Of a stretch of DNA of 58,715 nt, positions 9,045 through 42,928 are shown piece after piece; position 1 is the stretch's first letter, and each line of letters starts with the position of its first letter. This stretch comes from an uncultured bacterium (GTDB lineage Bacteria > B130-G9). The notes below the pieces were generated by a model. The model was not told where the DNA came from. It did not search any database and worked only from the letters and a program-made list of their open reading frames with translations. Position numbers and translations under genes: made by a program. The stretch is taken from the NCBI GenBank assembly GCA_964480475.1, contig CAYZPW010000004.1, positions 1 to 58,715 on the forward strand, written 5' to 3'.

Positions 9045-10661
9045 TTAGTCAAGGATAAGATCGTAGATTGCCAGCTCGCAGGCGTATTCGAGCGTCCCCG
9101 GATGGCACATAACGGCGACTAAGGTGTGGTCGCCCTCGGAGAACCTGGGGTCGCCTGATACCGCTATTTCGTCAAGGAAAAACGGCCCGTGCCACGGCCA
9201 CGCCCGGGGCTGGAGCGTGAGATTGCTCAGGATCGGGCTTATCTCTCGCGTCCACTCGCCGGCAGAGAAGGTCAGAATCTCCGCAGTCGGGGTAATGACG
9301 GCCAGATAGACATCGACGTTCGCCTCGATATATCTCGACGCGCTGCCGGAGAGGAACACACAATAGGCACCATCTGCCTCCTCGACGTCCATGACGATGC
9401 GTGGGGCGATGCGGTAATGAAAGCCCATGTCAACGATGCCAGTGTCGGGCACAAAGTCGGTGCGCGTGGTGTAGAACTGCATCCCCGCCTCCTCAACGGA
9501 TACGCCGCCCGCGTCGATGCAGGGGCTATCCACGTCCTGCCCTGCCGCTGTGCTGCTGAGGAAGTATTCCTGGGAGCTTTGGTCATCCGAGCTGAATATC
9601 GGGTCGAGATCGATATTGCCCTCGCCCTCCAGACCGCCCTGGACGCAGCAATATTGCCCATCATAGTTCGCTGATGTGCCTGTACCCCAGAGGATGGAAG
9701 ACTGGGTCATGTTCTGCCCCCAACCGTAGCCGCGTGCGGTCAGTTCATGGTCTATAAGAGTCGAGTTTTGAACAATGCAGCGACCTCCCCAGATGGCAAA
9801 TGTGCCCCAAGTTGTGTTGTTGTTCAGCAGTAGGCAGTTTGTCAAGGTATAGGCTGTGCCGTAATCAGGAGCTCTTCCCGTATATGACCCGGCCCCCAGG
9901 AGCCCGCAGTCTCCCATCAGATAGTAGTTCTGGCAGCAGCCGTAACCACCGCTGTTGTTGGTGAAAACGCTGTCTGAGACTATCGCGCTTCCTGCCATGG
10001 CATAATACCAGTCGAACCACGAGATGCACGGTGAGCAGTCCGACATGTTCCAGGTGAAATCGCAATCGGTCACGATCAGATGCGGACGGGTTGGATGATT
10101 CACTTCCATGCGTATTCCTGCAGAGGTGCCTCCTGCGATGTTCGCGTGGAAATCGCATTTTATGAATTCTGCGTACGATCGATGGCCCACGTATGCACCT
10201 GTTGTTTGATAGAAGTGGCAGCAACAGGCCACCAACTCGCTATTCGCTCTGGCCTGAATGCCCTTGCCCTGGTAGTTACCATCAATCTGCACTCGCGATA
10301 GCACCAGCTTTGCCGAATCGCTCAGAACAAAGGCAAAACCCTCCTCAGGCTCAAAAGAAGCCGACGCGAAGACAGACTCACCGATGGTCTGCAGATAGAC
10401 CGTTCGCTCGATGGTGAATGGGAACGCCTCGTGAGCCGAGTCATACATCCCGTATGCATACTCAAGATAGACCATCGTCAACTCCGCCTCTTGGTCACGC
10501 GAGTACTCCAGCGCCTCGGTCAGGCTGCTAAACGCATCGGGTATAAACCCGGTGGGTGAGACCTGCAGGATGAGCGGTGAGGCGCCAGCGTGGCCGGGCA
10601 AGGCCCCAATCGTAAAGCTTGAGATGATGCACAGTGTTGCGAGTGTGGCTGTTCTTGTCAT
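9045..10661 (-). CDS. Exported right-handed beta-helix (pectin-lyase-like) protein with shared terminal module
   Basis: ATG 10661 after AAGGAGG; signal peptide; repeated xxCxFxxN strands; SPCIDAG...DMGFHY; C-terminal VDVYLAVITP module. Confidence 0.75.
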   Translation of the reverse strand: MTRTATLATLCIISSFTIGALPGHAGASPLILQVSPTGFIPDAFSSLTEALEYSRDQEAELTMVYLEYAYGMYDSAHEAFPFTIERTVYLQTIGESVFASASFEPEEGFAFVLSDSAKLVLSRVQIDGNYQGKGIQARANSELVACCCHFYQTTGAYVGHRSYAEFIKCDFHANIAGGTSAGIRMEVNHPTRPHLIVTDCDFTWNMSDCSPCISWFDWYYAMAGSAIVSDSVFTNNSGGYGCCQNYYLMGDCGLLGAGSYTGRAPDYGTAYTLTNCLLLNNNTTWGTFAIWGGRCIVQNSTLIDHELTARGYGWGQNMTQSSILWGTGTSANYDGQYCCVQGGLEGEGNIDLDPIFSSDDQSSQEYFLSSTAAGQDVDSPCIDAGGVSVEEAGMQFYTTRTDFVPDTGIVDMGFHYRIAPRIVMDVEEADGAYCVFLSGSASRYIEANVDVYLAVITPTAEILTFSAGEWTREISPILSNLTLQPRAWPWHGPFFLDEIAVSGDPRFSEGDHTLVAVMCHPGTLEYACELAIYDLILD

Positions 10662-10744
10662 TTTGACCTCCTTCAAGTTGTTCTCAACGTCATCATACTA
10701 CACTTTGCCAGGCGCATTTTGCGGCACATTTCAGCCCGGGATTA

Positions 10745-17054: not shown

Positions 17055-17144
17055 GTAGGGGTTCGCCGCGCGGCGAATGTCTGCCCTGCCTGTAACGTCG
17101 CGTGCTTACGAGCAAACGGGCGGAGACAAGCCCCGGCCCCGCAG
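17055..17144. repeat. Degenerate REP-like inverted pair
   Basis: GTAGGGG...GCCC left arm; right arm reads GGGGCCGGGGCTTGTCTCCGCCC on the minus strand. Confidence 0.35.
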
Positions 17145-17276
17145 TATCGCTCCGGCTTTCGGCTGTTGAGTAAGCCGCATCTACTGTGGTATTCTCGCGT
17201 GGCTTCGAGGCAAGGCTGGCCTTCAATAGAGGTCAGAAAACGCATTTGAGTTTTGATCTCAGGACGGGGATTTGCA

Positions 17277-18495: not shown

Positions 18496-19191
18496 TCAAA
18501 GCCCAGACAGCCGCAGGATTACCGCGGCAAGGGCGCATAGGAATGTGAGGAGCAGAAAGGCGAGTCCCACGCGTATGGCGACCTCTTGCCTTCGCATCCA
18601 GAGTCTGTAAAGCGGCGTTGGTGTCAGTATCTGGGCTCCCCCACCCGTAGTGCTTACCTGAATCGGGTAGTATCTTTTCGCAAGCTCAATGCGCTCATGC
18701 CAGTTCCACATAAGCATCAGACCAGCAAACAGACCAAGGAAGGGCGAGTAGAGCTCGAACACAACGCTTATCAGGGGCGAGGGATAACTGCAGAATGACC
18801 ACAGCAAGAAGAGAATCAGGACCAACAAAACGGCAAAAAAGATGAAGTAAGAAACCTGACCGTGAATGAAATAAATTCGCAAGAAGCACGAGACGATTTT
18901 GCCCGTCGGCCTCGCCTGGGTCACAGTGTCTTGTTTGAGGCTGAACCTGATTCCCAGTGCTATTTGGTCAGGCTGAGACAAGCCCACCACGGGAAGGATT
19001 GAACCCTTGAATCCCTCATCAGCGCTCTGCACAAGTATGCACCTGCTTCGGCCCTTCCAGTGGATTCTCAGTGCACTGCCATGTGCAGGCTTCTTTTGTC
19101 CCAATGGCAGACGGATAATACACCATCTTCCGGGGATGTCCTCTAAATCCGCTCCGCCACGGGCGATTTCAATTGCCATTCTTGATTGCAT
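18496..19191 (-). CDS. Hypothetical membrane protein (about 3 TM helices)
   Basis: 231-aa ORF with clear hydrophobic segments; no family recognised. Confidence 0.5.
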   Translation of the reverse strand: MQSRMAIEIARGGADLEDIPGRWCIIRLPLGQKKPAHGSALRIHWKGRSRCILVQSADEGFKGSILPVVGLSQPDQIALGIRFSLKQDTVTQARPTGKIVSCFLRIYFIHGQVSYFIFFAVLLVLILFLLWSFCSYPSPLISVVFELYSPFLGLFAGLMLMWNWHERIELAKRYYPIQVSTTGGGAQILTPTPLYRLWMRRQEVAIRVGLAFLLLTFLCALAAVILRLSGL

Positions 19192-19292
19192 ATATATTCC
19201 TCGATAGGCAATTTAATCCTTGCCACGAAGTTCGACAAGCCGGGACTGAACTTGGATTGTTATCTTGTGCCCTTTCTCTGTAAGATAGGCTT

Positions 19293-19532
19293 GTGAAAAC
19301 AACTCGCTACTTCGAGGAGCAAGTTTTGCGGAAGCGGCCCTATATTAGGCGGGAATGGTGCGTTCAGGCAATTCGAAAGCCCATTCGCCGGTCCGTTCAG
19401 CCGGACGGTCGCATTCGTTACTTCACATTTGTTCCAGAAGTAGGTAAGTACCTGAGGGTGGTCACGCTTGAGGACGGAGAAACAGTCCTTAACGCGTTTT
19501 TCGACCGGAGGTTTCGGGAGGGAGCGAATTGA
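19293..19532 (+). CDS. DUF4258/BrnT-like small toxin
   Basis: QPDGRIRY...KYLRVVTLEDGETVLNAFFDR; upstream of and overlapping a DUF2283 gene. Confidence 0.75.
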   Translation: MKTTRYFEEQVLRKRPYIRREWCVQAIRKPIRRSVQPDGRIRYFTFVPEVGKYLRVVTLEDGETVLNAFFDRRFREGAN

Positions 19533-19756
19533 AACTGCATTATTACGAAGAGACAGACTCGCTATATATCGACCTGAGCGAGAGACCAGGCGCCGAATCG
19601 CAGGAGGTGGCGCCTGGCGTCGTGCTGGATTTCGATTCGGATGGGCATCTGGTCGGCATCGACGTCGATCATGCGAGCAAGGTCCTCGATTTATCTCGTG
19701 TTGAGGTCGAGGCCCTGCCGCTGCCATCAGTCGCGATGAAGACCGCTGACAGTTGA
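19529..19756 (+). CDS. DUF2283 domain protein (putative antitoxin)
   Basis: YYEETDSLYIDL...GVVLDFDSDGHLVGIDV. Confidence 0.88.
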   Translation: MKLHYYEETDSLYIDLSERPGAESQEVAPGVVLDFDSDGHLVGIDVDHASKVLDLSRVEVEALPLPSVAMKTADS

Positions 19757-19762
19757 GGACGA

Positions 19763-19786
19763 GGGCGGTTCGTGAACCGCCCCTAC
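19763..19786 (-). repeat. Single GTAG REP
   Basis: Minus strand GTAG-GGGCGGTTC-AC-GAACCGCCC. Confidence 0.7.
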
Positions 19787-20083
19787 GGGAGGTATCCGGT
19801 CTTCCTGGCACCCAATACCTGGCAACAGCATCACCAGCCAAGGCCAATAGCTCGACCTCGCCGGTCAACGACTTGTCGCTGATGGTGGTGCCGTCAGATT
19901 GCGAAGCAATAGGTCGCTGCATCCCATGCGCGGAATGCGTGGGACGTGGAAGACCTGTCGCCGAAGCGGCGCGGCAGGTGGCGCTTCGCCCAGCTTGTGG
20001 GAGCGGCGGCTCGCCGCTCGCGGAGGGGGTGCGGCGGACGAGCGATTGCGGCGCCAGATTGCGCAGCGATATGATGGCCTGCG

Positions 20084-21436
20084 CTATCCCAAGCCCAGCT
20101 CTGCCATCGCGTGCTCCAGCTCATCGGCCAGCAGCTTGCCTTGCGAATTGCCGGAGAGGTCGCTGAGGATACGCCTCTTCTCATCATCGAGCCAGCCGAG
20201 GCGCTCCCGGAGGGTCTTGGCCCGCTTCGTGTGCTTTATGTCCTTCGTGGTTTCAGCTAACACGGCGTCGATGGCGGTCTTGTAGCCCTGGGCCGCCTGC
20301 TTGATGCTGTGCTTTTGCCTTATGTAGGTCTGGGCGGCCTTGCCGATCTTGTCCCCTTCCTTGGGGTTGGACCACAGCTGTTCGAGGCGCTGCGCCACGT
20401 CGTCCGCCTCGGTAGGGGAATGCTCCACGAAAAGGCATGCGCCGGCTGGGAGGTGGCAGCTGTGGACGAGACGGGTCGCCACGACGGGCCTTCCAAGCGA
20501 CATTGCGGTCAGCATTGTGGCCGAGGTCTCACGGATACTGGTCGTCCTGAGGTTCAAAACAACGTCCGACGCGCTGATGTAGTTGGCAAACGCCTCGTCT
20601 GGGACGTAGCCTGCCAGTCTGACCGATTCGGTCAGGCCGCGACGGTTGATCTTGCTGGCGATGTCAACTCTGGGGTCGGGGTCTCCTATGATTATGAGTA
20701 GAGCGTTGCGATGTTTCTTGAGGAGCTGCGCGAACCCGTCCAGGGCTACGTCGGGCTTTCTGTGGGGCCCAACAAAGCCTGGGCAAAGGACGACGAACTT
20801 CCCAAGCGGCAGGTTCAGCTTCCTTCGGGCCTGAGCCTTCTTCAAGACGTTCTTGCGCACGGGGATGCCCATATTAACGAGGTGCGCGGGGGTATCCGGG
20901 GCCGCTATCTTGACCATCCGCTTGACGTAGGGGTTATGCACGATGGCGGCCAGGCTGCTCCTTAGGACCTTCTCGTTCATCGGGAACGTATCCAGCAGCG
21001 CGTTGAACTGGTCGCCTGCCATGACGAGGCGCGCGACCTCGGGGCCCTTTGGGCCCAGGCATTCCTCTAACTCGCGGGCGTATGTCGCCTCGTCGCCGGT
21101 CGCGCGGAGCATGCTGGCTCTCGATGGGTGAAGGTTGAAGTCATGCAGGACGACGACGCCGGGGAAGTTGAAGACGTAGTGATACATGAACCTGTGGTGA
21201 AGGTCGTTGCCCATCTGATAGACAATTGCGTCATATCTCTCGGTCTCGAGGCGCCTCTCGAAGCGTAGGTAGTTGAACACCTCAAACTGCGACGTTATGC
21301 CCTCGTCGTCAGAGTCGTAGTCGTCGATGAATACGTCGATGTCCATAAGTTTCTTGAGCTCGGGGAGCAGATTCCGGGAATAGTCAGCGACGCCCGAACG
21401 AATGGGTGACAGAACGCCAAAAAAAGCGATCTTCAT
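20084..21436 (-). CDS. Glycosyltransferase family 4
   Basis: SGVADYS, YQMGN..HH, VVLHD, GYVP, ETSATMLTAMSLGRPVVAT; ATGA overlap with the upstream gene. Confidence 0.9.
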   Translation of the reverse strand: MKIAFFGVLSPIRSGVADYSRNLLPELKKLMDIDVFIDDYDSDDEGITSQFEVFNYLRFERRLETERYDAIVYQMGNDLHHRFMYHYVFNFPGVVVLHDFNLHPSRASMLRATGDEATYARELEECLGPKGPEVARLVMAGDQFNALLDTFPMNEKVLRSSLAAIVHNPYVKRMVKIAAPDTPAHLVNMGIPVRKNVLKKAQARRKLNLPLGKFVVLCPGFVGPHRKPDVALDGFAQLLKKHRNALLIIIGDPDPRVDIASKINRRGLTESVRLAGYVPDEAFANYISASDVVLNLRTTSIRETSATMLTAMSLGRPVVATRLVHSCHLPAGACLFVEHSPTEADDVAQRLEQLWSNPKEGDKIGKAAQTYIRQKHSIKQAAQGYKTAIDAVLAETTKDIKHTKRAKTLRERLGWLDDEKRRILSDLSGNSQGKLLADELEHAMAELGLG

Positions 21437-22284
21437 TCTGCAACCTCGCGTTCTTCAATGAGATTGAGTGCGAGTCTCATGCGATACGAAGCCCTTGGAG
21501 CGTCGGTTCTTTCTTGCCCTGGGGATTGGGGGAGCGCAATCACCGCCCAGGTTTCATGCACAAGGCTCTTTATCGTGCAATCATCGGGGCACAAGACGAT
21601 TCTGCCCTCTCCGCGCCCAGAAATCCGCGGCTCGGAGGAGTCATTGTGAGCTTCGCTCTCGAACGACGACGAAAGAGACAGGACGACGACGCCGAACAGG
21701 ATTGGGACCTCTTCAGCGACACATTCGTATCGAACTAACACCTGGTTCGCTTCTTGCTGGAGCAAACCGGTCGCGGCCTCCCTGGATTGTGCAGTCCAGC
21801 CGTCGTTTTCGCCGATCGGGGACGCTGGCAGTCGCGGGACCGCATCGAGCAGCGCCTCAAGCAGCATCTTCGCGGGATTCGCGCCGTGGTTGTCGGCTTC
21901 TTGGCCTGCGACAACTATATCGCCCCGATCGGACATCCTGAATCTGATCGCCGCTTCGCTCTGCCTCGGGGTCTTCTGCGGAACCGGCGCCCGGTCTCGG
22001 GTAACGACAAGGTCCCGAAGCGTGATCTTGAGATCAGATTCGCCGGGCTCACGCTTGAGGCAACGCCATATCGCCTCTCCCCGTGCGCTGAACGCGATAT
22101 CGGGGAGTAAAGAGGCCTCCACGTGGAGGTCATAATGCAACAGCTTTGCCTCGTCGAAGCAATAGCGAATTTGGACGGTTTCTCTACAGCCGACATGAAG
22201 CGCAGTTGCGGCCAAAAGAGCGATGCAAGAGATGATCAGGAATGCGCGGGTGCTCGCTCTATCTGAGGATTGGGGTGTTCTCAA
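21433..22284 (-). CDS. Hypothetical lipoprotein-like protein
   Basis: Hydrophobic N-terminus ending in VGC; beta-rich body; overlaps both neighbours. Confidence 0.6.
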   Translation of the reverse strand: MRTPQSSDRASTRAFLIISCIALLAATALHVGCRETVQIRYCFDEAKLLHYDLHVEASLLPDIAFSARGEAIWRCLKREPGESDLKITLRDLVVTRDRAPVPQKTPRQSEAAIRFRMSDRGDIVVAGQEADNHGANPAKMLLEALLDAVPRLPASPIGENDGWTAQSREAATGLLQQEANQVLVRYECVAEEVPILFGVVVLSLSSSFESEAHNDSSEPRISGRGEGRIVLCPDDCTIKSLVHETWAVIALPQSPGQERTDAPRASYRMRLALNLIEEREVAE

Positions 22285-25200
22285 TTGTGGTCCTGGAGTC
22301 GTCGGAATCGCGCAGATTTGGCGCTATTGCGCCGTTCTCAAGCTGATACGGCGATGGCAATTCAGGGTTGAGTCCAGCGCTTGCGCAGTTGGAGAGCTCT
22401 GAGTAGTTCATCGCCTCGTCAAACGCTTTGAGAGCGAAGTAGTATCGCCTGTTGGCCTCCGGCAGGTCAAATAATAGGTTCTCAGTGGCGCCCGGGAACG
22501 ATGGGAAAATGAGCACCGGGGCCGGCGACGCCGCCTCGAAATCCTCCTCAGTACTGATCGGCGCCATCGAAAAACGCACGTCGTAGCCTTCAGCACGGCC
22601 AAGCGAGCCATCATCGCCCGGCGCGGTCCAGTGAAGACGCACGAGGCTCCCATCCTCGCTCAGGTGGGCGCCCAAGTCGTCAACTCTCGCGGGAGGGGTT
22701 GCATCAGCTGTGAAATCATAGAGTCTCAGGCAATAAACGTCGTCAAACATCTCCTGATAATCATACCCGCAGACTATCATCATGTAGCCATAGGGGCCCA
22801 CCACCCCAGCGGGTATCATGAGGATAGGCGTGCGGACGATAGGCGGCCTGGGGATTCCTGTGAGTATCGGCGCCAGGTCGGTCCAACTGTTTCCGCTGAT
22901 GTCATAGGAGAAGATTGCGTTGGAGACCGAGAAATTAGACGTTCTTCCCCCAAATGCGATTATCCTGTTGAAGTCAGAATCGTATCGCATGTCGTGAATA
23001 TAGGTCTCCTTTGGTGCAATGCCGTTCAGGGCCATAGAAAACCAGACCAATGACTCTGGATCGAGTGTGAACATGCTGCTTGTGAAACCATCCTCACCCA
23101 AGCCCCCGAACAGGAATGCGCTGTCGAGGGCCTCAGCATAGGCCATCGCTGTCAGATAGATTGTCGAAGGGCAGAAACCATTGCACTCAAAGGTGCTCCA
23201 TTCGTATGTCTGAAGGTCAAAGGCGTAGAAGTCGGTCACGAATTCGCCGCCGGAACTCATGAGGTATGCCCCATAATAAAGCAGGCGGTTGCGCGACGCG
23301 TCGAGAAACCCAGACCCGATAAGCGGCGTGCCTTCGGAGGGTTCAAACACTGGAGCGTCTCCGACAGGCTCATACTTGACCCAAACATGGTCGGGCAGGA
23401 CGAGCTGATAGACATTCATGTCAAACGCGAGCATCCAGATGCAGTCACGGGCTGAATCAAAGTGCGCCAGACATCGACCGAACGTCGGGAAAGGCCCGGA
23501 TGTCGGCACCTGCTCCCATCTGAGGCGTTCAAGGTCCAGAACGTATAGGATGTCCTCCTCCTCGTAGTCAGGAGTTCCGCCTAAGACATAGACGCGCTTG
23601 CGAGCGGGGTCGAGGACGACCTGGTGATTGAAGCGCGGGTAGGGCGTGGGCCCGGCGGGTTCAATCTGGAACCAGTCAACATCTGCTGCTGGGCGAACAG
23701 TCATAACGTTCGATGCGTGCCCGTCCTGGCCCAGTTCGTCATGCGCCGTCACGAAGAGCTCATATTGAACACCGTTTGCAAGACCCTTCAGCGTATAATC
23801 CCTCGTGAGCCCAACATCCAGAGTGCTGAAATCCTGACCAGCTTGAGTTTCACTTACCTCGAAATCAATCGCTCGATAATGGACGCGGTAGCCGGTCACA
23901 AACAGGTTATCAGGCCTCGACCACTGAAGCAGCGCTGAGCCCGCGCCGGCGACGACAGTGCCCAGGGTGGGAGCATCGAGCAGTTCTTCGGGCGAGGCCA
24001 CATACTCCTCCACAGTATAGTCAGTCTCGTTTGCGCAAGCGTCCACTGCGGTCGCAGCAAAGTAGTAGGTTCTCTGGTTGTCTAGGCCTGTAAGGTCGAT
24101 GGCGGTTTGCCGGAAGACCTTGATCGGCGAGGGGCCCTGGTCGGCGTCTGTCCCCTCGTATGGCTCACAGCAGCCATCACTGTCGTAATAGACCTTGAAG
24201 AAGGCGGGGTCTGGGGAGACGTTCCATTGGCATCTAATCGCTCTGTCGCCGACGCTTCCCTCCCTGATGGATATTACCTCTGGCGGATCGAAGTCATACT
24301 GACCGGACGTCCTGAATTCAAAGTGATAGGGCTCTTGCAGGGCGTTACCTCCTCTGTCCATCAGGGAATCATATACCGTGACGGAAACGGTTGCGCCGGA
24401 TGGGAAGTATTCATAGGGTGTGAAATGGATACAAGCGGCGTAGGGATCATATACCAGCTGCCCTTGCCAAACCCCACCCGGGTCACTCTCCACCCGCAGC
24501 GTATCAGATGATACGCTCTCCGGCGCCACGTCATCTGAGACGACGGCAAACACATGAGTATTCCGGGGCACATCTCGCTCTTGGTGGGCTGGAATTGTTA
24601 TGAGAACTCGCGGCGGCGCGCCGTCCTCCCCGAAACGGAACGTCCAGGACACAGGTTCCATTGCATTCTGCGACGGGGCATCGTCGCTTGCGGACAGCTC
24701 CACCCTAACTTGCTGCCCATACTCGAATCGACCGCTGCTCCCGTAGTAATTCACTTTCGCGCCGTTGAACATCATGAACAGCGTGGGACTGACAATCGCG
24801 TCGTTGATCGTCATTCGGACCGAATCTGCGTCTATTCGGCCACTAAAATCCCTTATGAAGGCAGAAATCCCGCTCGACGTCTCCCCGAACAACTCGTCGA
24901 GATCGACCACCGCTCCGTCCGGCGGTGACGTGGAGATGAGAATTGGCGGCCACACGTCGGCGCCAATTGAGAACGAGAAAGAATGGGACGCCATTACGTT
25001 GGGCGGCGCGGCGAGGTCCTGCCCCGTTATTTCAACGTCGTAACGCCTGTTGAAACCGAACTCTCCCTTACCCATATAGGTCATCATCCATCCCTCATCG
25101 GCGCGCTTGATACTGGCATTGACGTCCCGGCCGTTGACCGTCATCACAAGGCTGCCAATATCAACGTCCGTTCCGTTGTCGCCTATCATCGCGAAAACCG

Positions 25201-26356
25201 AGAACGGGTCGTCCGGGTTCTCAACGACACCAGCAGGTCCGAAGTCCTCCACAAATGGCGGCTCGGTGTCCGGCACAGCATCCGGTCGAATCGTGAAGGC
25301 ATATCGATATGGCTCCATCTGATTCGGTGTCGGGGACCTATCCGCACAAGCGATCTCAATGCCCATCTCAGAGCCGGGCGCAAGATGCTCATCGGGCGAA
25401 TAGACGACGATGACAGAATCCATGAGCTCCTGCGTCTCGAATTCTACGACGTTTCCATCCACAAGTAATTCAATGCTGCTGGGGTCAACTCCTGTCCCTT
25501 CGTCGGACAACTCGATCGATATCGTGGGGTTCGTCCGAGGCGCCTGCTCACCCGGCATGGGCGAGGCGCGGACGAATGACGGAGGCGTCGTATCGTATAG
25601 CCAATGGATGATCCGACGAAGGAGTTCATCGCGGCCGCTCGGGCCTCCCTCACTGTCAACTAGCGCCTCAAGCGCAAAGGAGAGGAACACTGCACGGTAA
25701 TGAAGCGTGGTTCCATCGGCCGGCAGGCGAACTGCCGCCCCATTGACCAGTGATTCGGAACTCATAGTCATGAAGACCTGAGCGTATTCATCGAGTGGCC
25801 TGACGAGCATGAAAAAATCTCTATTGCCGAAGGGTGATTCTGTTGAGAAGGACATGCCGGACCCAATAGGATCGTGCGGCGCTCCAAGTATCAGAAGTGG
25901 TCGCGTGTAGTAATCATACGCGACGTGCATGTATTCGAGCAGCAGACTCTCCGTGTTCTGATACGCATACTCGCCGGCCGAGAGGAGAAGTGCCCCACCA
26001 GCATCCAGGTAAGCCATGACGCGTCTGGCGCCCTCGCCGCGGTAAAGACCGAAACCGCTCCCGCCAACAGAATAGACCACAATCTCGTAGGACGAAAGAA
26101 GAGCCACACTGGGTGAAGTCGCCGACTCAGCTATGCTGAAAGTGTCGTATTCAACGCCGACATGATCGAGCGCCTCCGTGAGATAGTATGCGGTGCTTGT
26201 CAAGAAGAAGGACGCACTGTCGTCAACGAGCAGGATGCTAGGCGAATGCCCTTCCTGGGCATCGTCCGCAAGAACATCCAGCGAGCAACCCGACGCAACC
26301 GCAATGATCGCCAGGATGGCCATTAGCCTCAAGACGCCAGAGTCTATCTGGTTCAT
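22259..26356 (-). CDS. Large lipoprotein: GATase-like N-domain, Ig/Big_5 repeats, Fn3 domains, Kelch propeller
   Basis: Lipobox VASGC; repeated DxxPP...GVD..SI Ig units; Kelch repeats (GPTPYPRFNH, VYVLGG, FLFGG, IIAFGG); Fn3 WTAPGDDG..YDVRFS. Confidence 0.8.
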   Translation of the reverse strand: MNQIDSGVLRLMAILAIIAVASGCSLDVLADDAQEGHSPSILLVDDSASFFLTSTAYYLTEALDHVGVEYDTFSIAESATSPSVALLSSYEIVVYSVGGSGFGLYRGEGARRVMAYLDAGGALLLSAGEYAYQNTESLLLEYMHVAYDYYTRPLLILGAPHDPIGSGMSFSTESPFGNRDFFMLVRPLDEYAQVFMTMSSESLVNGAAVRLPADGTTLHYRAVFLSFALEALVDSEGGPSGRDELLRRIIHWLYDTTPPSFVRASPMPGEQAPRTNPTISIELSDEGTGVDPSSIELLVDGNVVEFETQELMDSVIVVYSPDEHLAPGSEMGIEIACADRSPTPNQMEPYRYAFTIRPDAVPDTEPPFVEDFGPAGVVENPDDPFSVFAMIGDNGTDVDIGSLVMTVNGRDVNASIKRADEGWMMTYMGKGEFGFNRRYDVEITGQDLAAPPNVMASHSFSFSIGADVWPPILISTSPPDGAVVDLDELFGETSSGISAFIRDFSGRIDADSVRMTINDAIVSPTLFMMFNGAKVNYYGSSGRFEYGQQVRVELSASDDAPSQNAMEPVSWTFRFGEDGAPPRVLITIPAHQERDVPRNTHVFAVVSDDVAPESVSSDTLRVESDPGGVWQGQLVYDPYAACIHFTPYEYFPSGATVSVTVYDSLMDRGGNALQEPYHFEFRTSGQYDFDPPEVISIREGSVGDRAIRCQWNVSPDPAFFKVYYDSDGCCEPYEGTDADQGPSPIKVFRQTAIDLTGLDNQRTYYFAATAVDACANETDYTVEEYVASPEELLDAPTLGTVVAGAGSALLQWSRPDNLFVTGYRVHYRAIDFEVSETQAGQDFSTLDVGLTRDYTLKGLANGVQYELFVTAHDELGQDGHASNVMTVRPAADVDWFQIEPAGPTPYPRFNHQVVLDPARKRVYVLGGTPDYEEEDILYVLDLERLRWEQVPTSGPFPTFGRCLAHFDSARDCIWMLAFDMNVYQLVLPDHVWVKYEPVGDAPVFEPSEGTPLIGSGFLDASRNRLLYYGAYLMSSGGEFVTDFYAFDLQTYEWSTFECNGFCPSTIYLTAMAYAEALDSAFLFGGLGEDGFTSSMFTLDPESLVWFSMALNGIAPKETYIHDMRYDSDFNRIIAFGGRTSNFSVSNAIFSYDISGNSWTDLAPILTGIPRPPIVRTPILMIPAGVVGPYGYMMIVCGYDYQEMFDDVYCLRLYDFTADATPPARVDDLGAHLSEDGSLVRLHWTAPGDDGSLGRAEGYDVRFSMAPISTEEDFEAASPAPVLIFPSFPGATENLLFDLPEANRRYYFALKAFDEAMNYSELSNCASAGLNPELPSPYQLENGAIAPNLRDSDDSRTTIENTPILR

Positions 26357-29238
26357 TATCGGTTCTCTCCGTTTCTCAATTGGGATGTTGCTATCTCAAA
26401 TGAAGTAGCCCTGGCGGCCGAGTAGAGGTCGTAAGTGCCGGATAATGTCACGGCGCCATAGGCAGAGTACTGCCCTGACGGAAAATGCTCTGTAATAGAC
26501 ATCTCAGCGACCTGGAAGAACAAGTCAGTTCCGGTCATGGCGAAAAACGGGAAGCCCACTATGTCCGATGTAAAGCCCAGACCATCGAAGAAAAGAAATC
26601 CCCCAGGGGTATCGATTGCTAAATAGACATCGATGCGGACCGACGGACCCTTGTGCTCAAGGCGCGCATCGAGTCTAAGTGTATCGCCGGGCACGAAAAC
26701 GGTGCCATTGACCAAGGGGAAGAGCGCCGGATACAGTCTTCTACAGAGCGTTATCTCCGTTATCTTAGTCTGGCCCCCGATGAGCAGAACGTCGAGTTCC
26801 TCGTATGGTTTGTAGGTAGGGGCGGAGACGTCAAGAGAGTATGAGCCTGCGGGCAGGTTCTCTATCGTGAACCTGCCGTCTGTGCCCGTTCGCACAGTTG
26901 ACGTCGTCGAGTCAAGGGCAACGAGCGCAGATTGAACCGGCTCGCCCGTTACAGCATCCAAAACCCGGCCCATGAGGGTCCCCGTCGTCCCCACATCCCC
27001 AAGTCTGAAGACGCCGCCGCCCTGGGTGGCTGCGTAAAGGACTGACCCGTCCGCGGAGATGTCAAGCGCCGTTATCGCTCGGTTCTCAAGGCCATCATTT
27101 ATGTGCATCCAGACCCCGCCGGCATCCTCCGACACGTATGCGCCGGTGTGCCAGTCGCCCGCAAAGACCCGATCGCTGTCGAGTGGATCGACCGCGAGGC
27201 CCCGCACCGTCGCCTCGGCATCTAAGCCGACATTAACCTGCATCCAGCTCAAACCGCCGTCCTGGCTCTTGAATATCCCGGCGTTTTCAGCCCCCGCGTA
27301 TAACACGTCCGGGTTGTTGGGGTCTATGGCTATTGACCTGATGTCCATTCTGGTTATCCCGGAGTTTATGTGAATCCAGTGTCCTCCGCCGTCAACTGTC
27401 TTGTAAACGCCGGAGTTGAGCGTCACGGCATAGGCGGTGTCGGGGTCGTGCGGGTGCACAACGATGGCGTTGATGTTCTTTGTGGTCTTCTCCAGACCAT
27501 CGTTCATCTGAACCCAGGTATCGCCCCCGTCCGTCGATTTATAGACCCCCATGCTCGGCCGGGTGGTATCGTAAGGGGTCATTCGGTCGAACTCGATCGT
27601 CTTATCGGGTATCCTCGCGCCTGCATATATAACCGAGGGATCCGAGGGCGCAAAGACAACTGTCTTGATCCCATGAAGAGAAAGAGGGTAGTGGACCTGG
27701 TCAACTGGAATGATGACCAGCAGGATCTCCCAGGATTCCCCGCGGTCCTGAGTCCTGTATAGCTCCCCGTAGAACTGGTCGGCAGCAAGGACAACGTTTG
27801 GCTCGTCCGGTTTGACGCAAACGGCCGACCACTCGGGCCTTGGTTGGACGCCGGACATTCCCCCGGTTCCCAACCAGTTGAGGCCGCCATCAAAGCTCTT
27901 GAACGGGCCGGGTCGCCCCACGGCAAATACAACGGACGGACTGTAGGGGTCCATGGCGATGTCAGTCAGCTCGGCGCCAGTGAAACCGTTCATTGCGTTC
28001 ATCCAGGTGGCGCCGGCGTCCAAAGACAAATACAGCCCGCCCGTGTAGGAGTTCACAAACACCTTGTCCGGGTTGGTGGGGTCGATCGTTATGGTTATCG
28101 GAACACCTGAATAGACGTCCGGTAGGCCCAGAGGCATCGTATCCCACGACTCTCCTCCATCGTAGCTTCTCGCAAACTGCCATTCGCTTGATGCGTAGAT
28201 GATGTCAGGATCGCTCCGGTCAACCTCCACTGCGTTCCAACAGCGATACGCCGGCCCGATCTCCGTCCAGCTCTGGCCCCCATCCGTGGTCTTTAGGATG
28301 GAGCCGTGCCGTGGCTCTGGCTCTGGGCCGAAACCCTCGTGCCGGCCCGTCGCGCAGAAGAGCGTGTTGTGGTCGAACGGGTGCATAGTCAGGCCCCCAA
28401 CCACAAGGTTATCAATGCCATTGTTGATATGATACCACGTGGCGCCTCCGTCATCGGACTTAAGTATGCCCTCGGGGACCACGTCCCACCTATCAAATAT
28501 GCCGGTTGCCGTATAGACAACGTCCGTGTCCTCGGGGTCGATCACGATGTACCGAACCAGGGCGTCGCAGTCCAAAACCGTGAACCAGTTGTCCCCACCG
28601 TCGGTCGTCTTGAATATCATGCCTCGCGACTTGTTCTGGCCGATGAGCGGAATCTCCACCCCAGTATAGACGATGTTTGTGTCGTCGGGGTTGATCGTGA
28701 ACGACCTGAACGACATGCCCTCCAGGTCGGGTATCCCGCGGTCCATCTTGACCCAGCTCTCGCCCTTGTCGAATGACTTATAGACCCCACGCATCCCATA
28801 CGTCCCGCACCAAACTATGTTGGAGTCGTATGGGTCAATCGTGCAGCAGAAAATCGGAACCGAGTCGAGCGACGGCCCGAATCTGCTTGTGATGCCCTCG
28901 TTTCTCGGGTACCATGTATAGCCGCCATCGTAGCTCTTGCACATGCCCGCCCACTGGTCGGTTGTATAGACGATGTTGGGGTCCCGCGGGTCGATGCGTG
29001 TGTCGTAGCCCAGCCCCCCGGGCGGTCCCAACGTCGATGTCCACCTGAGGGGTCTAGGCTCCTGAGCCCAAGCGCTCGGGAGTATGAAGAGGCCCCCCAA
29101 AACTAGGATAAGGATGAAGCTCCAGGAAAACTTCGCCCCGAAGCGCGGATGGCATCCAGATGCTAGGCTGCGGGCAAATGCTTGAAAGGCTACTCCCACG
29201 TCGTCAATCTCCCCCGAAATGGAATGTCTCGGTCTCAC
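26356..29238 (-). CDS. Exported BNR/VPS10-like beta-propeller protein with carboxypeptidase-regulatory-like domain and shared terminal module
   Basis: Many SxDGGxTW Asp-box repeats; GTLMGRVLDA..GEPV domain; C-terminal FVPGD..IDVYLAIDTPGG module. Confidence 0.85.
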   Translation of the reverse strand: MRPRHSISGEIDDVGVAFQAFARSLASGCHPRFGAKFSWSFILILVLGGLFILPSAWAQEPRPLRWTSTLGPPGGLGYDTRIDPRDPNIVYTTDQWAGMCKSYDGGYTWYPRNEGITSRFGPSLDSVPIFCCTIDPYDSNIVWCGTYGMRGVYKSFDKGESWVKMDRGIPDLEGMSFRSFTINPDDTNIVYTGVEIPLIGQNKSRGMIFKTTDGGDNWFTVLDCDALVRYIVIDPEDTDVVYTATGIFDRWDVVPEGILKSDDGGATWYHINNGIDNLVVGGLTMHPFDHNTLFCATGRHEGFGPEPEPRHGSILKTTDGGQSWTEIGPAYRCWNAVEVDRSDPDIIYASSEWQFARSYDGGESWDTMPLGLPDVYSGVPITITIDPTNPDKVFVNSYTGGLYLSLDAGATWMNAMNGFTGAELTDIAMDPYSPSVVFAVGRPGPFKSFDGGLNWLGTGGMSGVQPRPEWSAVCVKPDEPNVVLAADQFYGELYRTQDRGESWEILLVIIPVDQVHYPLSLHGIKTVVFAPSDPSVIYAGARIPDKTIEFDRMTPYDTTRPSMGVYKSTDGGDTWVQMNDGLEKTTKNINAIVVHPHDPDTAYAVTLNSGVYKTVDGGGHWIHINSGITRMDIRSIAIDPNNPDVLYAGAENAGIFKSQDGGLSWMQVNVGLDAEATVRGLAVDPLDSDRVFAGDWHTGAYVSEDAGGVWMHINDGLENRAITALDISADGSVLYAATQGGGVFRLGDVGTTGTLMGRVLDAVTGEPVQSALVALDSTTSTVRTGTDGRFTIENLPAGSYSLDVSAPTYKPYEELDVLLIGGQTKITEITLCRRLYPALFPLVNGTVFVPGDTLRLDARLEHKGPSVRIDVYLAIDTPGGFLFFDGLGFTSDIVGFPFFAMTGTDLFFQVAEMSITEHFPSGQYSAYGAVTLSGTYDLYSAARATSFEIATSQLRNGENR

Positions 29239-31210
29239 TTGTCATCAAGATGTCTTCGAGCTGCAAGCCTTTCTCATCGGCCACGTCCTTGAAGACTTTC
29301 CGATAGATAAGCCGCGCATCGACCGTCGCGGTGTTTGCGGCCACTGGCAAGCGGAATTCGTAGGTTGAAAAATCGGATTGAAGCGCGGGGATGCGGGTGT
29401 CGGACAGGATCATCGTCTGCCGCCACGACGGGGCGGGGTGATTGCCAAGCTGGTCAACCAGTATCTTGGCGAACATCTTCCCCGGGCGCCCGGCGAAGTC
29501 CCGTGGCCCGCCGCCCGTGCCGCCATAACCCAGCACAACTTGCTCCCCGACGAACTCAAGCTCGTTGCCGTCGCGATCGAAGGCGTTGACAAGTAGTATG
29601 ATGTTGCGTATCGGCCTGCCGGTAGGAAGATGATGTCCTGCAAAGGCGTTGAACACCTCGACTGTCGCCACAAGGCGGTTGTCCGGTTCCTTTGAGGCCG
29701 CAATTGATAGTATCGCCGATTCGTAGTGCAGCGAGATGCTGTCCTCTCCCATGATGAGATGAGAAGGGATGGTGTCCGGGTCTCTCTCCCTCGCGTGGCT
29801 GAGAGGAGCGAAGTTCTTGGTGATCCCATCCGGCCTGTAGTGGCAGGCCTGGCACTGTATGCCCATTTCCTTATATTCGCTGGCTTCCCACTCGGGGAAC
29901 GATGTGTATGTCGGCACGCCCCAGAACTCACAAGCGTGGCAAGGTGCGCATATCTCGCTTCTCTTCATCAGGGGCAGGAAGGTGCTTATACGCCCAGCAT
30001 CTTTGATGGGTCCCAGCACAATCCAGCGGTCAGGGAACGGACGGCGCAATTCAATTGCGTTAATGCCATAGACCGTGCCCGGGTTAGACAGATCGACGTC
30101 GATGATCTTATGGCAGAAATCACAGAAGACGCCTTGCTGACCCAACGGACTGAGATTAGCCATATCCGAATCGTATGGCGATTTGAGCGCCTCAGAGGGA
30201 GCGTGGCAAAGCGCACAGCTGCCTGCCGTCTCCGGGAAATCGAGCTTGTAGCCAAGCCCAACGCCAGGGTTACCGCCAACGTCGGCCCCAGTATAAAGCG
30301 TCTGAAAAATAGCATTGCTGGCGGAGCGAGCGTGGAAATTGGCGGACCACTGCTGAAACGGAGGGGTAAGGCATTTCATGCAATTGAATTGGTGGTCGGA
30401 TACGGACGGTATCGGCGGAACCCATTCATATTCCTCGTTATCAACCGGGGTTATTGGGTCCAGGGATAGCACGACGCTAGTGGTTGGCGTGAGAACCTCA
30501 ACAGCGGCGCAATAATACTCGTATTTCCAGCCAGAGACGTCGAGTCGCACGTCGCATGGAACACCCTCAAGAACGAATCTGCCATCTCTGTCGCTCTGAA
30601 CCTCATTCGACGAGGCGCGCACCTTTACCGTCGCAGATGAGGCGGGGCCGTTCTCATCGAATATCTGACCGGAGATGATGCAGTGCTGCGGGTCAAAAGT
30701 GAACGATTCGGCACTGAACGTGACGGGCAGGAGAGTGTCAGCAGAAGTCAGCATTCCCCATAGCCAATACTCACCTTGAGGCAGGCTCAGATCGTGCCTA
30801 AGAATGGCCCTATAGACAAGTGTCTTAGGAAGCATACCATGCCGCGTGATATGAAAGCCTCTCGCTGCGGGAACCGGAGAGGGGGAACCCATCCAGCTCG
30901 CCTCGACCAGGCTGCCTTTTTCGACCATCAGGCCCGAGAATGACAAGTCTGGAAGCAAGCAGTATAACCTCCCGTCCGGCAGCTCCAGGCCAAGATACAT
31001 ATCGACGGCAACATCCTCCTGAGGCGGGCAAATCTCGACGTAGAGCCTCAACCGATCCCAGGTGATGTAGTGGACCTTTTCGGCGAAGAACCTGATCGAG
31101 AGGTCTTCATAGCTCAAGGACGTTTGCCCCGTGACAAGCAAAGGCAAGCCACAGGAACACAAACCGGTCATTACGACTATAAGGCACTTGATGTGCCGAG
31201 CACAGGTCAT
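29204..31210 (-). CDS. Exported multiheme c-type cytochrome (c554-like) with N-terminal shared module
   Basis: CALCH, CDFCH, CAPCH, CQACH plus one CMKCL; GHHLPTG; carboxypeptidase-regulatory-like domain; start 31210 or 31237. Confidence 0.85.
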   Translation of the reverse strand: MTCARHIKCLIVVMTGLCSCGLPLLVTGQTSLSYEDLSIRFFAEKVHYITWDRLRLYVEICPPQEDVAVDMYLGLELPDGRLYCLLPDLSFSGLMVEKGSLVEASWMGSPSPVPAARGFHITRHGMLPKTLVYRAILRHDLSLPQGEYWLWGMLTSADTLLPVTFSAESFTFDPQHCIISGQIFDENGPASSATVKVRASSNEVQSDRDGRFVLEGVPCDVRLDVSGWKYEYYCAAVEVLTPTTSVVLSLDPITPVDNEEYEWVPPIPSVSDHQFNCMKCLTPPFQQWSANFHARSASNAIFQTLYTGADVGGNPGVGLGYKLDFPETAGSCALCHAPSEALKSPYDSDMANLSPLGQQGVFCDFCHKIIDVDLSNPGTVYGINAIELRRPFPDRWIVLGPIKDAGRISTFLPLMKRSEICAPCHACEFWGVPTYTSFPEWEASEYKEMGIQCQACHYRPDGITKNFAPLSHARERDPDTIPSHLIMGEDSISLHYESAILSIAASKEPDNRLVATVEVFNAFAGHHLPTGRPIRNIILLVNAFDRDGNELEFVGEQVVLGYGGTGGGPRDFAGRPGKMFAKILVDQLGNHPAPSWRQTMILSDTRIPALQSDFSTYEFRLPVAANTATVDARLIYRKVFKDVADEKGLQLEDILMTSETETFHFGGD

Positions 31211-31282
31211 GAAACTACCCCCGGATCTATCCAACAATTAATATGCGCCACGTCAACACTGAACGTCAAGGCTGAACGCCCC

Positions 31283-31555
31283 CCCCAATAATCAGATTGA
31301 CGCAAGCTGGTTCTGGCTTTTGGAGCGCGGCGGCCTGACGCCGCTTTCATTGGCGGTGACCTGGCACCGCCTTCTCTAGACTGCGTTGAGAGCGTTCAGG
31401 TGGGTGATCTGGAAAGCGCGGAATCATTCATTAGAGCAGATGCCACGTCAGGCCGCGGCAAGTGAAAGCGGTGCCGGGACAGAAGCACTCCAAATCACCC
31501 AACGGGTGCAAGACGGATCGCTACTGTACTCGACAAGATCGGCCTCGTAAATGGC
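31283..31555. mobile_element. MITE-like element, copy 2 (truncated, inverted relative to copy 1)
   Basis: TIR CCCCAATAATCAGATTG; GCACTCCAAATCACCCAACGGGTGCAAGA..ATCGCTA.TGTA.TCGACAAGA..GCCTCGT.AATGGC matches the reverse complement of 638-705. Confidence 0.7.
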
Positions 31556-31738
31556 TCAGCCCGAATAATTCAAGGGCATGACTCTCGTCGGTGTAGGGCA
31601 GGCTTTCCGAGGCTGGGTCATAAGTCGATTGACGAGGATTTCGTCGTGCATTCAGACGACAACGATACAGGAAATACGGCAGATTGTCAAGATCAACGCG
31701 GCGGTTTTCTTATGCGACGCGATTGTCGGAATCGGCCT

Positions 31739-31844
31739 GTAGGGGCGTGGTCTCAGACCCGCCCGCCTACGTGAATCCCTGCGGATACGAGGCATCTTAT
31801 GCGAGCATCAATTAGAACGGGCGGGTCTGAGACCCCGCCCCTAC
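31739..31844. repeat. GTAG REP doublet, copy 3
   Basis: Near-perfect inverted arms and conserved spacer. Confidence 0.9.
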
Positions 31845-31953
31845 ACAACGTCAGATCCGACTTATTGGACAGCCTCTGGAACCCAGGGGCTGATGAGAGT
31901 GACCTGCCACGCAGAAATCTCGCCGCTGGTTTGGACAAGTTGCGGGCTTGCCC

Positions 31954-42845: not shown

Positions 42846-42928
42846 CCCAACTGGAGGCGAGCTCGGCACGTGCGAGCCGTCAAAGTTCGCCCGCGGGTGA
42901 AAAGAGCTATGGGAGCGGAGGCTCTCCG
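42846..42928. repeat. Dispersed repeat family (CCCAACTGGAGGCGAGCTC...TGGGAGCGGAGGCTCTCCG), copy 1
   Basis: Second copy at 46247-46346; overlaps the last codons and stop of the 42907..45078 gene. Confidence 0.7.

Follow-up and report, generated by a model that had tools for sequence, protein, structure and literature searches.

A five-gene operon from a Coatesbacteria-like sediment bacterium pairs a pentaheme-fold cytochrome with a double BNR propeller

In sediments, surface multiheme cytochromes drive the flow of electrons to and from iron, sulfur and humic compounds and between species, and the known surface cytochrome systems are mainly porin-cytochrome conduits of Proteobacteria and Desulfobacterota. 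Beta-propellers combined with c-type heme are found in the periplasm, in cd1 nitrite reductase, the quinohemoprotein dehydrogenases and hydrazine synthase, and CXXCK is the catalytic heme motif of NrfA. For the cytochrome described here, the best match in both sequence and fold is the penta-heme cytochrome c552 of Thermochromatium (T.) tepidum (PDB 5ZE8). A further relative is MccSep/ExtKL from Geobacter, a polysulfide-reducing selenoprotein with several hemes (PDB 9WT8; bioRxiv 10.1101/2025.11.18.688581). A sequence-only reading of the present locus knew of no described system with the same composition, and we likewise found none in the searched literature.

Structure and conservation of the five-gene operon

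Genes A to E occupy 20084..31210 on the minus strand of the window, the whole stretch of 58,715 nucleotides that was analysed. The features referred to below are as follows.

31211..31953, minus strand: intergenic region upstream of A, with promoter-like sites and one palindromic repeat copy
31739..31844: one copy of a 106-bp palindromic repeat, in the intergenic region upstream of A
31690..31662, minus strand: promoter-like site TTGACA-17-TATCGT, upstream of A
31269..31240, minus strand: promoter-like site TTGACG-18-CATATT, upstream of A
29204..31210, minus strand: gene A, multiheme cytochrome, 668 aa (open reading frame and database gene call P0001)
30368..30382, minus strand: heme site 1 of A, degenerate CMKCL (residues 277-281), read from the sequence
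30203-30217, minus strand: heme motif CALCH of A, canonical CXXCH
30110-30124, minus strand: heme motif CDFCH of A, canonical CXXCH
29936-29950, minus strand: heme motif CAPCH of A, canonical CXXCH
29840-29854, minus strand: heme motif CQACH of A, canonical CXXCH
26356..29199, minus strand: gene B, BNR propeller protein, 947 aa from GTG 29199 (the longest open reading frame reaches 29238)
22259..26356, minus strand: gene C, predicted lipoprotein, 1365 aa
21433..22284, minus strand: gene D, clade-restricted predicted lipoprotein, 283 aa
20084..21436, minus strand: gene E, GT4 glycosyltransferase (Pfam Glycos_transf_1), 450 aa

The sequence-only reading had proposed five minus-strand genes that all overlap. 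The five open reading frames are present as it placed them, and three of the overlaps stand (TAATG, 1 nt, at B/C; 26 nt at C/D; ATGA, 4 nt, at D/E), those at C/D and D/E being repeated in orthologous loci. The fourth, of 35 bp at A/B, probably does not: B most likely starts at GTG 29199 rather than at the longest-ORF start, given that the orthologue in the independent assembly L005 uses the same start and that a Shine-Dalgarno sequence (GGGGGAG) precedes it, so the 35-bp overlap is probably a longest-ORF artefact. As this start lies 4 nt past the stop of A, the junction is likely a 4-nt spacer with a Shine-Dalgarno site. Gene A most likely starts at ATG 31210 and not at TTG 31237, in view of the 668-aa database gene call and the homology to L005, which begins at 31226. 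Against L005 the dN/dS of all five genes is 0.23-0.40, indicating purifying selection, and the intergenic region upstream of A has no Rfam match.

The synteny search proposed as a check on the operon recovered A-B-C(-C')-D-E from eight or more independent contigs of the Coatesbacteria clade, so that the refuting case named by the sequence-only reading, an order shared with no other genome, does not apply. The full order is kept in L004, L005, L085, L086/87 and L088, and A-B-C in L001/2, L003, L006, L007, L089 and L090; D and E are missing from L001/2, and where present they always lie downstream of a Kelch gene with their overlaps unchanged. The L005 locus shares 95.4% identity with the block over 11,187 bp, with limits exactly at the five genes, and the flanks are unrelated between window and L005 and equal in GC. 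To judge by these alignments, the five-gene block moves as a unit. The nearest named enolases are those of Ca. Coatesbacteria (84%); the host is a Coatesbacteria-like sediment bacterium, and the five-gene operon is real and conserved.

Products of the five genes

Pfam and NCBIfam agree with the composition given by the sequence-only reading: a cytochrome (A, which also matches CarboxypepD_reg), a Sortilin-Vps10/BNR protein (B), a Big_5/fn3/Kelch protein (C) and a GT4 glycosyltransferase (E). Gene A encodes a signal peptide, a DUF11/CARDB-like shared module (approximately residues 35-175), a CarboxypepD_reg domain (~181-250), a helical pentaheme-type cap (~270-490) and an Ig-like beta-sandwich stem with a GHHLPTGRP loop (~495-668). 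Its AF2 model (pLDDT 87.8) has the succession of helical multiheme cap and Ig-like beta-sandwich that defines the 5ZE8-type fold, and it matches 5ze8 by phmmer (E 3.7e-8) and Foldseek (E 1.9e-18; TM 0.71 on target; 435 aligned columns). On this modelled structure, A belongs, as a cytochrome with the pentaheme fold, to the T. tepidum c552/MccSep superfamily.

Only four CXXCH motifs, not five, are present in A, with CMKCL at site 1. The four canonical motifs (span 29840..30217) are invariant in 111 relatives, and the Cys pair of site 1 is invariant in the family, while the fifth residue of that site is H in 73 of the 111, M in 20, K in 15, Q in two and L in one. The CMKCL codons are the same in L005. 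We know of no standard maturation system that attaches heme to a CMKCL-type site and, by analogy with MccSep, the exposed entry heme may be absent from the A of this window. No heme maturation genes (Ccm/Ccs) occur within the 58.7-kb window.

The fold superfamily common to A and MccSep/ExtKL (bioRxiv 10.1101/2025.11.18.688581) raises the alternative that A, like MccSep, catalyses a reduction itself, with polysulfide, elemental sulfur or another small oxidant as its substrate, and that B only presents the substrate or anchors A. The variable fifth residue of site 1 (H/M/K/Q/L) resembles catalytic hemes such as that of NrfA, and the invariant distal His number only three to four for five sites, as this alternative would suggest. 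However, the Sec/Cys of the MccSep D-G-U-P motif (U325) corresponds to Arg in the P-T-G-R-P of A and mostly to Ser in other family members (column counts S 51, R 19, H 16, F 14, N 7, Q 2), and the QCC segment with the distal Cys ligand (C239) of the catalytic heme 2 aligns to a gap in A in one weak pairwise alignment. The resemblance itself is weak (NF040886, 48.9 bits for a match to part of the family, where the cut-off is 250; phmmer E 0.016), and MccSep is described as periplasmic whereas A homologues are T9SS cargo. We regard a catalytic A of this type as very unlikely.

Gene B encodes a signal peptide, a double seven-bladed BNR/Sortilin-Vps10 propeller, a CarboxypepD_reg domain (26746-26979) and a C-terminal shared module (26389-26736). 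Pfam scores are 124 bits for Sortilin-Vps10/BNR, 60 bits for CarboxypepD_reg and 32 bits for PSII_BNR, and the 13 Asp-boxes are consistent with two seven-bladed propellers. Matches to the BNR 'glycosyl hydrolase' structures 3b7f and 6p2l cover parts of B only and are driven by the Asp-box repeats, and the score against NCBIfam NF045728 (F510_1955 glycosylhydrolase) is 168.4 bits, just under the cut-off of 175. No His or Cys is invariant in the B family, so B has no obvious redox cofactor.

The module that A and B had been said to share is borne out by profile comparison: hhalign relates the N-terminal module of A to the C-terminal module of B (P 1.1e-5) and to that of a beta-helix protein (P 1.6e-8), and an HMM made without A recovers the A N-terminus at E 1.5e-5. 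The same module lies at the C-terminus of three unrelated secreted proteins of the window (994..3273, 9045..10676 and 42907..45078) and is unrelated to T9SS C-terminal domains (hhalign probability <1%).

Gene C, of the 'C2' paralogue type, encodes an alpha/beta N-domain without assignment, Big_5 Ig-like repeats, fn3, a Kelch propeller and a C-terminal fn3-like domain. Its lipobox-like ASGC (AVASG-C) has a counterpart, VSA-C, in the C2 copy of L003, and the lipobox G-C of D (HVG-C / VQG-C) is kept in 12 of 14 homologues, in both cases as judged by eye, from the alignment for D. C and D, both named lipoproteins in the sequence-only reading, are predicted from such sequence features to be bacterial lipoproteins with a signal peptide ending in a lipobox Cys. 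D has no family match in Pfam or NCBIfam and only 13 homologues, which are clade-specific. Its AF2 model (pLDDT 72) predicts a beta-barrel around a helix, resembling in Foldseek the lipovitellin/ApoB N-barrel and more weakly YmcC/LolA, so that its best fold matches are soluble lipid-binding barrels; a C-terminal aromatic beta-signal is absent in all D homologues. E reaches 54.4 bits against Glycos_transf_1 (gathering score 26.4), which places it in GT4, and every NCBIfam match is far under cut-off, with no equivalog reached; lacking a signal peptide, it is assigned as cytoplasmic. C, D and E are clade-specific additions outside the conserved core and, being confined to one clade, may be functionally separate.

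The cytochrome-propeller pair across phyla

Adjacent A and B homologues occur at 90 loci, spread over roughly nine named lineages; they are co-directional in 89 of these loci and within 700 bp in 86. B adjoins A in 32 of the 84 cytochrome-seeded genome loci, from Bacteroidota, Ignavibacteriota, Deinococcus, Acidobacteriota, Nitrospinae, Planctomycetota, Desulfobulbia and Chloroflexota as well as the Coatesbacteria clade, and the cytochrome is present in 60 of the 80 B-seeded metagenome loci (36/42 where both sides have room). The nearest-neighbour cytochrome has a B context too in 76 of 79 cases. The cytochrome heads the operon here, as the sequence-only reading stated, but not elsewhere as a rule, since the propeller gene comes first in 67 of the 90 pair loci. 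In two proteins, P0299 and P0292, a single chain holds both the cytochrome and a propeller of the B type, 45% and 40% identical to B, respectively. The same cytochrome module is fused to other propellers: a YVTN propeller with a di-heme peroxidase-like (CCP) domain, a PQQ-dependent GSDH that also bears CBM96 and a T9SS tail, and a PD40 propeller with HZS_alpha. Both adjacency and fusion argue strongly for the proposed joining of the propeller to a redox centre, at least for A and B. The wider proposal of the sequence-only reading, a glycosylated complex of all five products whose propellers bind particles, is a speculative one, E being a cytoplasmic GT4.

Apart from the two partners, no gene family is conserved across the 90 pair loci; no porin, quinol oxidase, membrane cytochrome or periplasmic multiheme (e.g., decaheme) partner is linked there, and the operon contains no porin or quinol oxidase gene, as had been remarked, and no other CXXCH protein. 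Clustering at 50% identity gives 203 clusters of the cytochrome family at E<=1e-30 (762 at E<=1e-10), and the family has relatives in 316 species genomes, mostly of Chloroflexota. Sequence comparison marks A+B as an ancient pair. As neighbours or as one polypeptide, the two recur in many bacterial phyla and form a probable extracellular redox module, apparently an undescribed one; no description of it was found in the searched literature.

The surface location claimed for the complex receives indirect support. In Bacteroidota, Ignavibacteriota and Latescibacterota, homologues of A and B bear T9SS C-terminal sorting domains (Por_Secre_tail), which indicate such a location, and the Chloroflexi B homologues end in a linker and membrane anchor, whereas the A and B of the window carry neither Por_Secre_tail nor another surface-sorting signal recognised by Pfam.

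The five genes might instead encode independent surface or secreted proteins, such as adhesins or sheath components, that are merely co-located and use a common lineage-specific sorting or anchoring module, with the cytochrome functionally tied neither to C, D and E nor even to B. Such an arrangement would fit the occurrence of the shared module on three unrelated secreted proteins and the lack of D and E in L001/2. It is hard to reconcile with A-B adjacency across phyla, with the A-B fusions, with the fixed position and overlaps of D-E behind the Kelch gene and with the movement of the block as one unit, and we consider it improbable.

The fusions bear also on a possible extracellular, glycan-directed redox system, in which a GH74-like B would bind or cleave a polysaccharide or glycoconjugate and A would remove or supply electrons for an oxidative step. 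In one fusion (P0364) the partner of the cytochrome module is a PQQ glucose/sorbosone dehydrogenase that has two CBM96 domains, and B relatives often carry a lectin-like 3-keto-disaccharide-hydrolase domain (PF06439, on L064 and P0299). The Kelch/Ig protein C and the GT4 enzyme E suit a carbohydrate theme, as do other nearby glycosyltransferase genes (an upstream GT4-GT2 and, in orthologous loci, PMT_2) and the matches of B to 3b7f, 6p2l and F510_1955 (168 bits). Yet that last score is under the cut-off, Asp-box repeats drive the PDB matches, B has no redox cofactor signature and the pair is not accompanied by any conserved carbohydrate-active enzyme, which together make a glycan-directed role unlikely.

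Proposed role and comparison with known systems

We think it fairly probable that the locus is a co-transcribed operon of a Coatesbacteria-lineage anaerobe encoding an extracytoplasmic, probably cell-surface, redox module with A+B as its core. B, a cofactor-less double BNR propeller, would be the substrate-facing partner, binding or possibly hydrolytic, and/or a surface anchor; A would pass electrons between the electron carriers of the cell and a substance held by B. The lineage-specific C, D and E could serve to extend the module, to anchor it or to assemble it, and perhaps also to glycosylate the module or its lipid anchor. This proposal builds on the gene structure, the purifying selection, the modelled fold of A, the conserved gene order, the linkage and fusions across phyla, and the export signals of homologues; that A and B touch and are exposed at the surface in this organism, which way electrons flow and what the substrate would be are inferred.

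More tentatively, the CarboxypepD_reg-pentaheme cytochrome and BNR double propeller could constitute a new and phylogenetically widespread class of extracellular oxidoreductase with two components, or of electron outlet. It would be exported by T9SS in FCB-group bacteria and tethered to the membrane in Chloroflexota, would have no dedicated porin-cytochrome conduit and a tunable proximal ligand of heme 1 (His, Met, Lys or none), and may link cell metabolism in anoxic sediments to substrates that are polymers or particles (glycans, humics, minerals). The cytochrome family is consistently tied to beta-propellers, which lie next to it or are fused with it. Should the pair be a redox enzyme or electron outlet outside the cell, it would offer a testable candidate for electron exchange with insoluble or polymeric substrates by abundant uncultured sediment lineages (Anaerolineae, Ignavibacteria, Coatesbacteria), and the CXXC[H/K/M/Q/L] variants would offer a natural series for the study of heme ligation.

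Porin-cytochrome conduits (MtrCAB, Geobacter Pcc/Ext) are analogous in function, being surface multiheme cytochromes of diderm bacteria in anoxic sediments, but they differ in their outer-membrane porin, periplasmic decaheme and quinol oxidase genes, which neither the operon nor the 90 pair loci contain. In ptdABCDEFG (bioRxiv 10.1101/2023.11.21.568154), compared by description only, PtdA is followed by a porin, more cytochromes and oxidoreductases, none of which occur here. With MccSep, A shares the 'mushroom' architecture, in which a loop of the Ig-like stem extends to the hemes of the five-heme cap, although the MccSep gene (extKL) lies in an ext cluster and not beside a BNR propeller. [quoted passage not shown] Propeller-plus-cytochrome enzymes are alike in design, and the A-family module is fused to GSDH, YVTN/CCP and PD40/HZS_alpha propellers, whereas B is of the BNR/Asp-box type, with no conserved His/Cys or other cofactor signature. 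In its 13 Asp-boxes and two seven-bladed propellers B resembles the BNR propellers of GH74, Sortilin-Vps10 and Ycf48; it stands apart from them in falling just under the F510_1955 cut-off and in having a cytochrome as its partner.

Organisation and movement of the five-gene block

ORF calling placed five consecutive genes, A to E, on the minus strand between 20084 and 31237 of the window:

29204..31210, minus: gene A, with a signal peptide, a beta-sandwich module of ~140 aa, CarboxypepD_reg and a c-type cytochrome region
26356..29199, minus: gene B, with a Sortilin-Vps10/BNR match (124 bits) and 13 Asp-boxes, then CarboxypepD_reg and a C-terminal module
22259..26356, minus: gene C, 1365 aa, with a lipobox-like ASGC, an N-domain without assignment, Big_5 Ig repeats, fn3, a Kelch propeller and a terminal fn3-like domain
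21433..22284, minus: gene D, without a family match
20084..21436, minus: gene E, a GT4 without a signal peptide

The number of Asp-boxes in B is consistent with two seven-bladed propellers, and D66, D236 and D250, counted from the GTG start at 29199, are invariant acidic residues of the protein. No relative of the N-terminal domain of C was found in Pfam or PDB, no specific equivalog of E was found in NCBIfam, and no Rfam family matched the operon or its leader. The sequence-only reading had all five genes overlapping, which stands for three junctions: B and C share one base (TAATG), C and D overlap by 26 nt and D and E by ATGA, the latter two overlaps being seen again in orthologous loci. The 35-bp overlap claimed for A and B exists only if the longest ORF is taken, and falls away with the GTG at 29199, which lies 4 nt past the A stop, has GGGGGAG in front of it and also serves as the start in comparison locus L005 (MAG contig CBDVDH010000015.1). 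The most likely start of A is the ATG at 31210, given the database gene call of 668 aa and the beginning of L005 homology at 31226. For D (21433-22284) the database call on the window contig takes a later start and gives 235 aa; this is probably an N-terminal truncation, since the orthologues keep the full 283-aa form including signal peptide and lipobox. Compared with L005, all five genes have dN/dS of 0.23-0.40, indicating that they are real and under constraint.

An order conserved in no other genome was the refuting case named in the sequence-only reading, but the arrangement is not peculiar to this genome. The order A-B-C-D-E recurs in L005 (A identity 91%) and L004, and a Coatesbacteria MAG (L003/L085) has A-B-C1-C2-D-E, in which two paralogue types of C are present, C of the window being the C2 type. 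The contigs of L086/87 and L088 end before A and hold the remaining part in the same order (B-C1-C2-D-E), with B of L088 retained as a C-terminal fragment only, and A-B-C occurs in L001/2, L006, L007, L089 and L090. Homologues of D number only 13, all from the Coatesbacteria-like clade. L005 is 95.4% identical to the window over 11,187 bp, and the match covers 20045..31226, exactly the five genes, with unrelated flanks on both sides: upstream lie a PMT_2 and a beta-helix protein in L005, and a GT4-GT2 fusion and an S41 protease in the window. The block has thus changed place as a whole between close relatives, and the limits of the match place the promoter region outside the conserved block. 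Recent horizontal transfer is not favoured as the cause of the differing context; rearrangement between close relatives fits better with the equal GC of block and flanks and with a 93%-identical enolase in the database. Relocation as a unit is also independent evidence that the five genes form one unit, and the reading of them as surface proteins that are merely co-located, with no functional relation, is very unlikely.

The neighbouring genes are housekeeping or typical of anaerobes (glutamine synthetase, enolase, Rnf complex, glycosyltransferases), and the closest named enolases (84%) as well as the closest named full-length homologues of A and D belong to Candidatus Coatesbacteria. The stretch 14004-18253 holds the Rnf genes (Rnf-Nqr subunit, FMN_bind, RnfD) on the minus strand, after which come plus-strand genes for a rhodanese and a MauE/DoxX membrane protein. 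Two adjacent plus-strand ORFs, 50259-53657 (1132 aa) and 53786-57127 (1113 aa), had no Pfam match at E<=1e-4. Just 3' of E, a 220-aa minus-strand ORF (19260-19922), Arg/Pro-rich, of low complexity and without a family match, is probably not a gene, leaving ~900 bp downstream of the operon unassigned; within these lies a plus-strand cluster of terminator-like hairpins (19072-19628). A 106-bp intergenic palindromic element occurs in four copies (12743-12848, 31739-31844, 46040-46144 and 49155-49260), with zero expected by chance. Its 25-bp GC-rich inverted arms (GGCGGGTCTGAGACC..CGCCCCTAC) flank a conserved 56-bp core, inverted in one of the four copies, and its appearance is that of a repeat of the REP or MITE kind.

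The cytochrome and its propeller partner

Gene A carries the heme motifs CALCH, CDFCH, CAPCH and CQACH, and its first site has the degenerate form CMKCL. All of 111 relatives keep the four CXXCH motifs and the two cysteines of site 1, whose fifth position is H in 73, M in 20, K in 15, Q in 2 and L in 1; inside the Coatesbacteria clade it is H, Q or L. CMKCL has the identical encoding in L005 and is thus no sequencing error. A matches the penta-heme cytochrome c552 of Thermochromatium tepidum (5ZE8) both in sequence (phmmer E 3.7e-8) and through its AlphaFold model (pLDDT 87.8; E 1.9e-18, TM 0.71). A weaker phmmer match (E 0.016) leads to MccSep (9WT8), the Geobacter selenoprotein polysulfide reductase. 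Its fold is described as an Ig-like stem topped by a helical cap with five hemes, the catalytic Sec lying in a loop of the stem (10.1101/2025.11.18.688581). The corresponding loop of A, GHHLPTGRP, has Arg where MccSep has Sec, and the distal Cys region of MccSep falls in a gap, so that A is a relative within the superfamily and not an MccSep. Membership among the MccSep-type sulfur reductases was rejected on these positions and the score, and that A acts as a catalytic reductase in the manner of MccSep is scarcely probable.

Scanning genomes with A as the seed yielded relatives in 316 species genomes, for the most part Chloroflexota. A B-type double propeller (35-47% identity) adjoins the cytochrome in 32 of 84 A-seeded loci, these records being named Prolixibacteraceae, Melioribacter, Deinococcus, Thermoanaerobaculia, Nitrospinae, Planctomycetota, Desulfobulbia, many Chloroflexota and the Coatesbacteria clade. 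Conversely, the cytochrome is present in 60 of the best 80 B-like metagenome loci, and in 36 of the 42 that extend 2.2 kb or more to each side. The two genes are co-directional in 89 of 90 pair loci and lie within 700 bp of each other in 86, with B preceding A in 67 and A preceding B in 22. Cytochromes linked to B also make up a similarity group of their own (in 76/79 cases the B context is shared by the nearest neighbour). Natural fusions came from a whole-library search for the cytochrome (203 clusters at E<=1e-30): P0299 joins a lectin-like domain, a B-type propeller (45% identity, 742 aa), CarboxypepD_reg and the cytochrome, and P0292 a B-type propeller (40% identity) and a C-terminal cytochrome. 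Taken together, this comparative evidence points to A and B as the functional core of the operon. The cluster had been read as lacking a porin or quinol oxidase gene, and the wider comparison agrees, as no third gene (porin, quinol oxidase or membrane cytochrome) is conserved with the pair across the 90 loci.

The cytochrome also has other partners. It adjoins or is fused to a YVTN propeller and di-haem peroxidase-like protein (28 loci; P0275, P0277), and further fusions place it between a PQQ glucose/sorbosone dehydrogenase with PKD and a LamG, TIG, 2xCBM96 and T9SS tail part (P0364) or after a PD40 propeller and the middle domain of hydrazine synthase alpha (HZS_alpha; P0273). What recurs is this cytochrome in the role of electron-transfer partner to a beta-propeller protein outside the cytoplasm.

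The 28 loci are from Anaerolineae (within L011-L077) and never contain B; two other genes precede the cytochrome, one encoding a YVTN propeller with a di-haem CCP/MauG-like part (~650 aa) and the other a 1150-2000-aa product without a family match (for example L045 5899-9891 and L046 4033-5973). Another cluster (L053/L070/L073) reads DUF362, cytochrome, YVTN/CCP, FG-GAP/cytochrome c, cytochrome b, Rieske and multi-cytochrome c, which in some Chloroflexota ties the family to a complex of the bc type.

Shared module, cell location and accessory proteins

The module that the sequence-only reading saw in both A and B proved genuine. Profile-profile comparison matched the N-terminal module of A to the C-terminal module of B (P 1.1e-5) and to that of a beta-helix protein (P 1.6e-8), the latter also matching B (P 9.6e-16), and an HMM made without A detects the A N-terminus in all clade orthologues. 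Three more secreted proteins of the window, all on the minus strand, carry the module C-terminally: a DUF6345 protein (994-3273), the beta-helix protein (9045-10676) and a Reg_prop propeller protein (42907-45078). Pfam gave weak DUF11/CARDB hints only. The module is unrelated to T9SS C-terminal domains, of which it had been considered a divergent form (hhalign probability <1%), and a by-eye impression of the module on the Nitrospinae B homologue L056 was not confirmed by HMM. We infer a lineage-specific anchoring or association role.

No recognised sorting domain was found on A or B of the window, which bear the clade-specific module instead. Homologues of A carry T9SS sorting domains in Latescibacterota, Ignavibacteriales (NCBI names) and further relatives, as do homologues of B in Prolixibacteraceae and Melioribacter, and in Chloroflexi the C-terminus of B homologues is made up of a Pro/Thr linker, a transmembrane helix and a basic tail. 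These features support an exported, surface-attached pair in the lineages that have them.

The predicted fold of D, of moderate confidence (pLDDT 72), is a beta-barrel around a helix, closest to the barrels that bind lipid at the N-termini of lipovitellin and ApoB, with weaker similarity to YmcC/LolA-like lipoproteins. D is unlikely to be the missing outer-membrane porin, considering its lipoprotein signal, soluble best fold matches, TM of ~0.2-0.3 to OmpF/C and lack of a C-terminal aromatic signal. E is a cytoplasmic GT4, and a PMT_2 glycosyltransferase and a beta-helix protein often lie upstream in orthologous loci. Glycosylation of the operon products would be plausible. A redox system that is itself directed at glycans would be an unlikely reading.

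Proposed function and relation to known systems

We consider it probable that the five genes form one operon encoding a redox module located outside the cytoplasm, probably at the surface. In this scheme A would pass electrons along, B would be its obligate partner, facing the substrate or anchoring the pair, and C, D and E would be clade-specific factors for extension, assembly or glycosylation. The view that no described system has this composition held in the literature searched, where neither the cytochrome-BNR pairing nor its fusions, its breadth or the five-gene elaboration in Coatesbacteria was found described. The parts themselves are already known, namely the c552/MccSep fold, the BNR propeller, the Kelch/Ig lipoprotein and the GT4.
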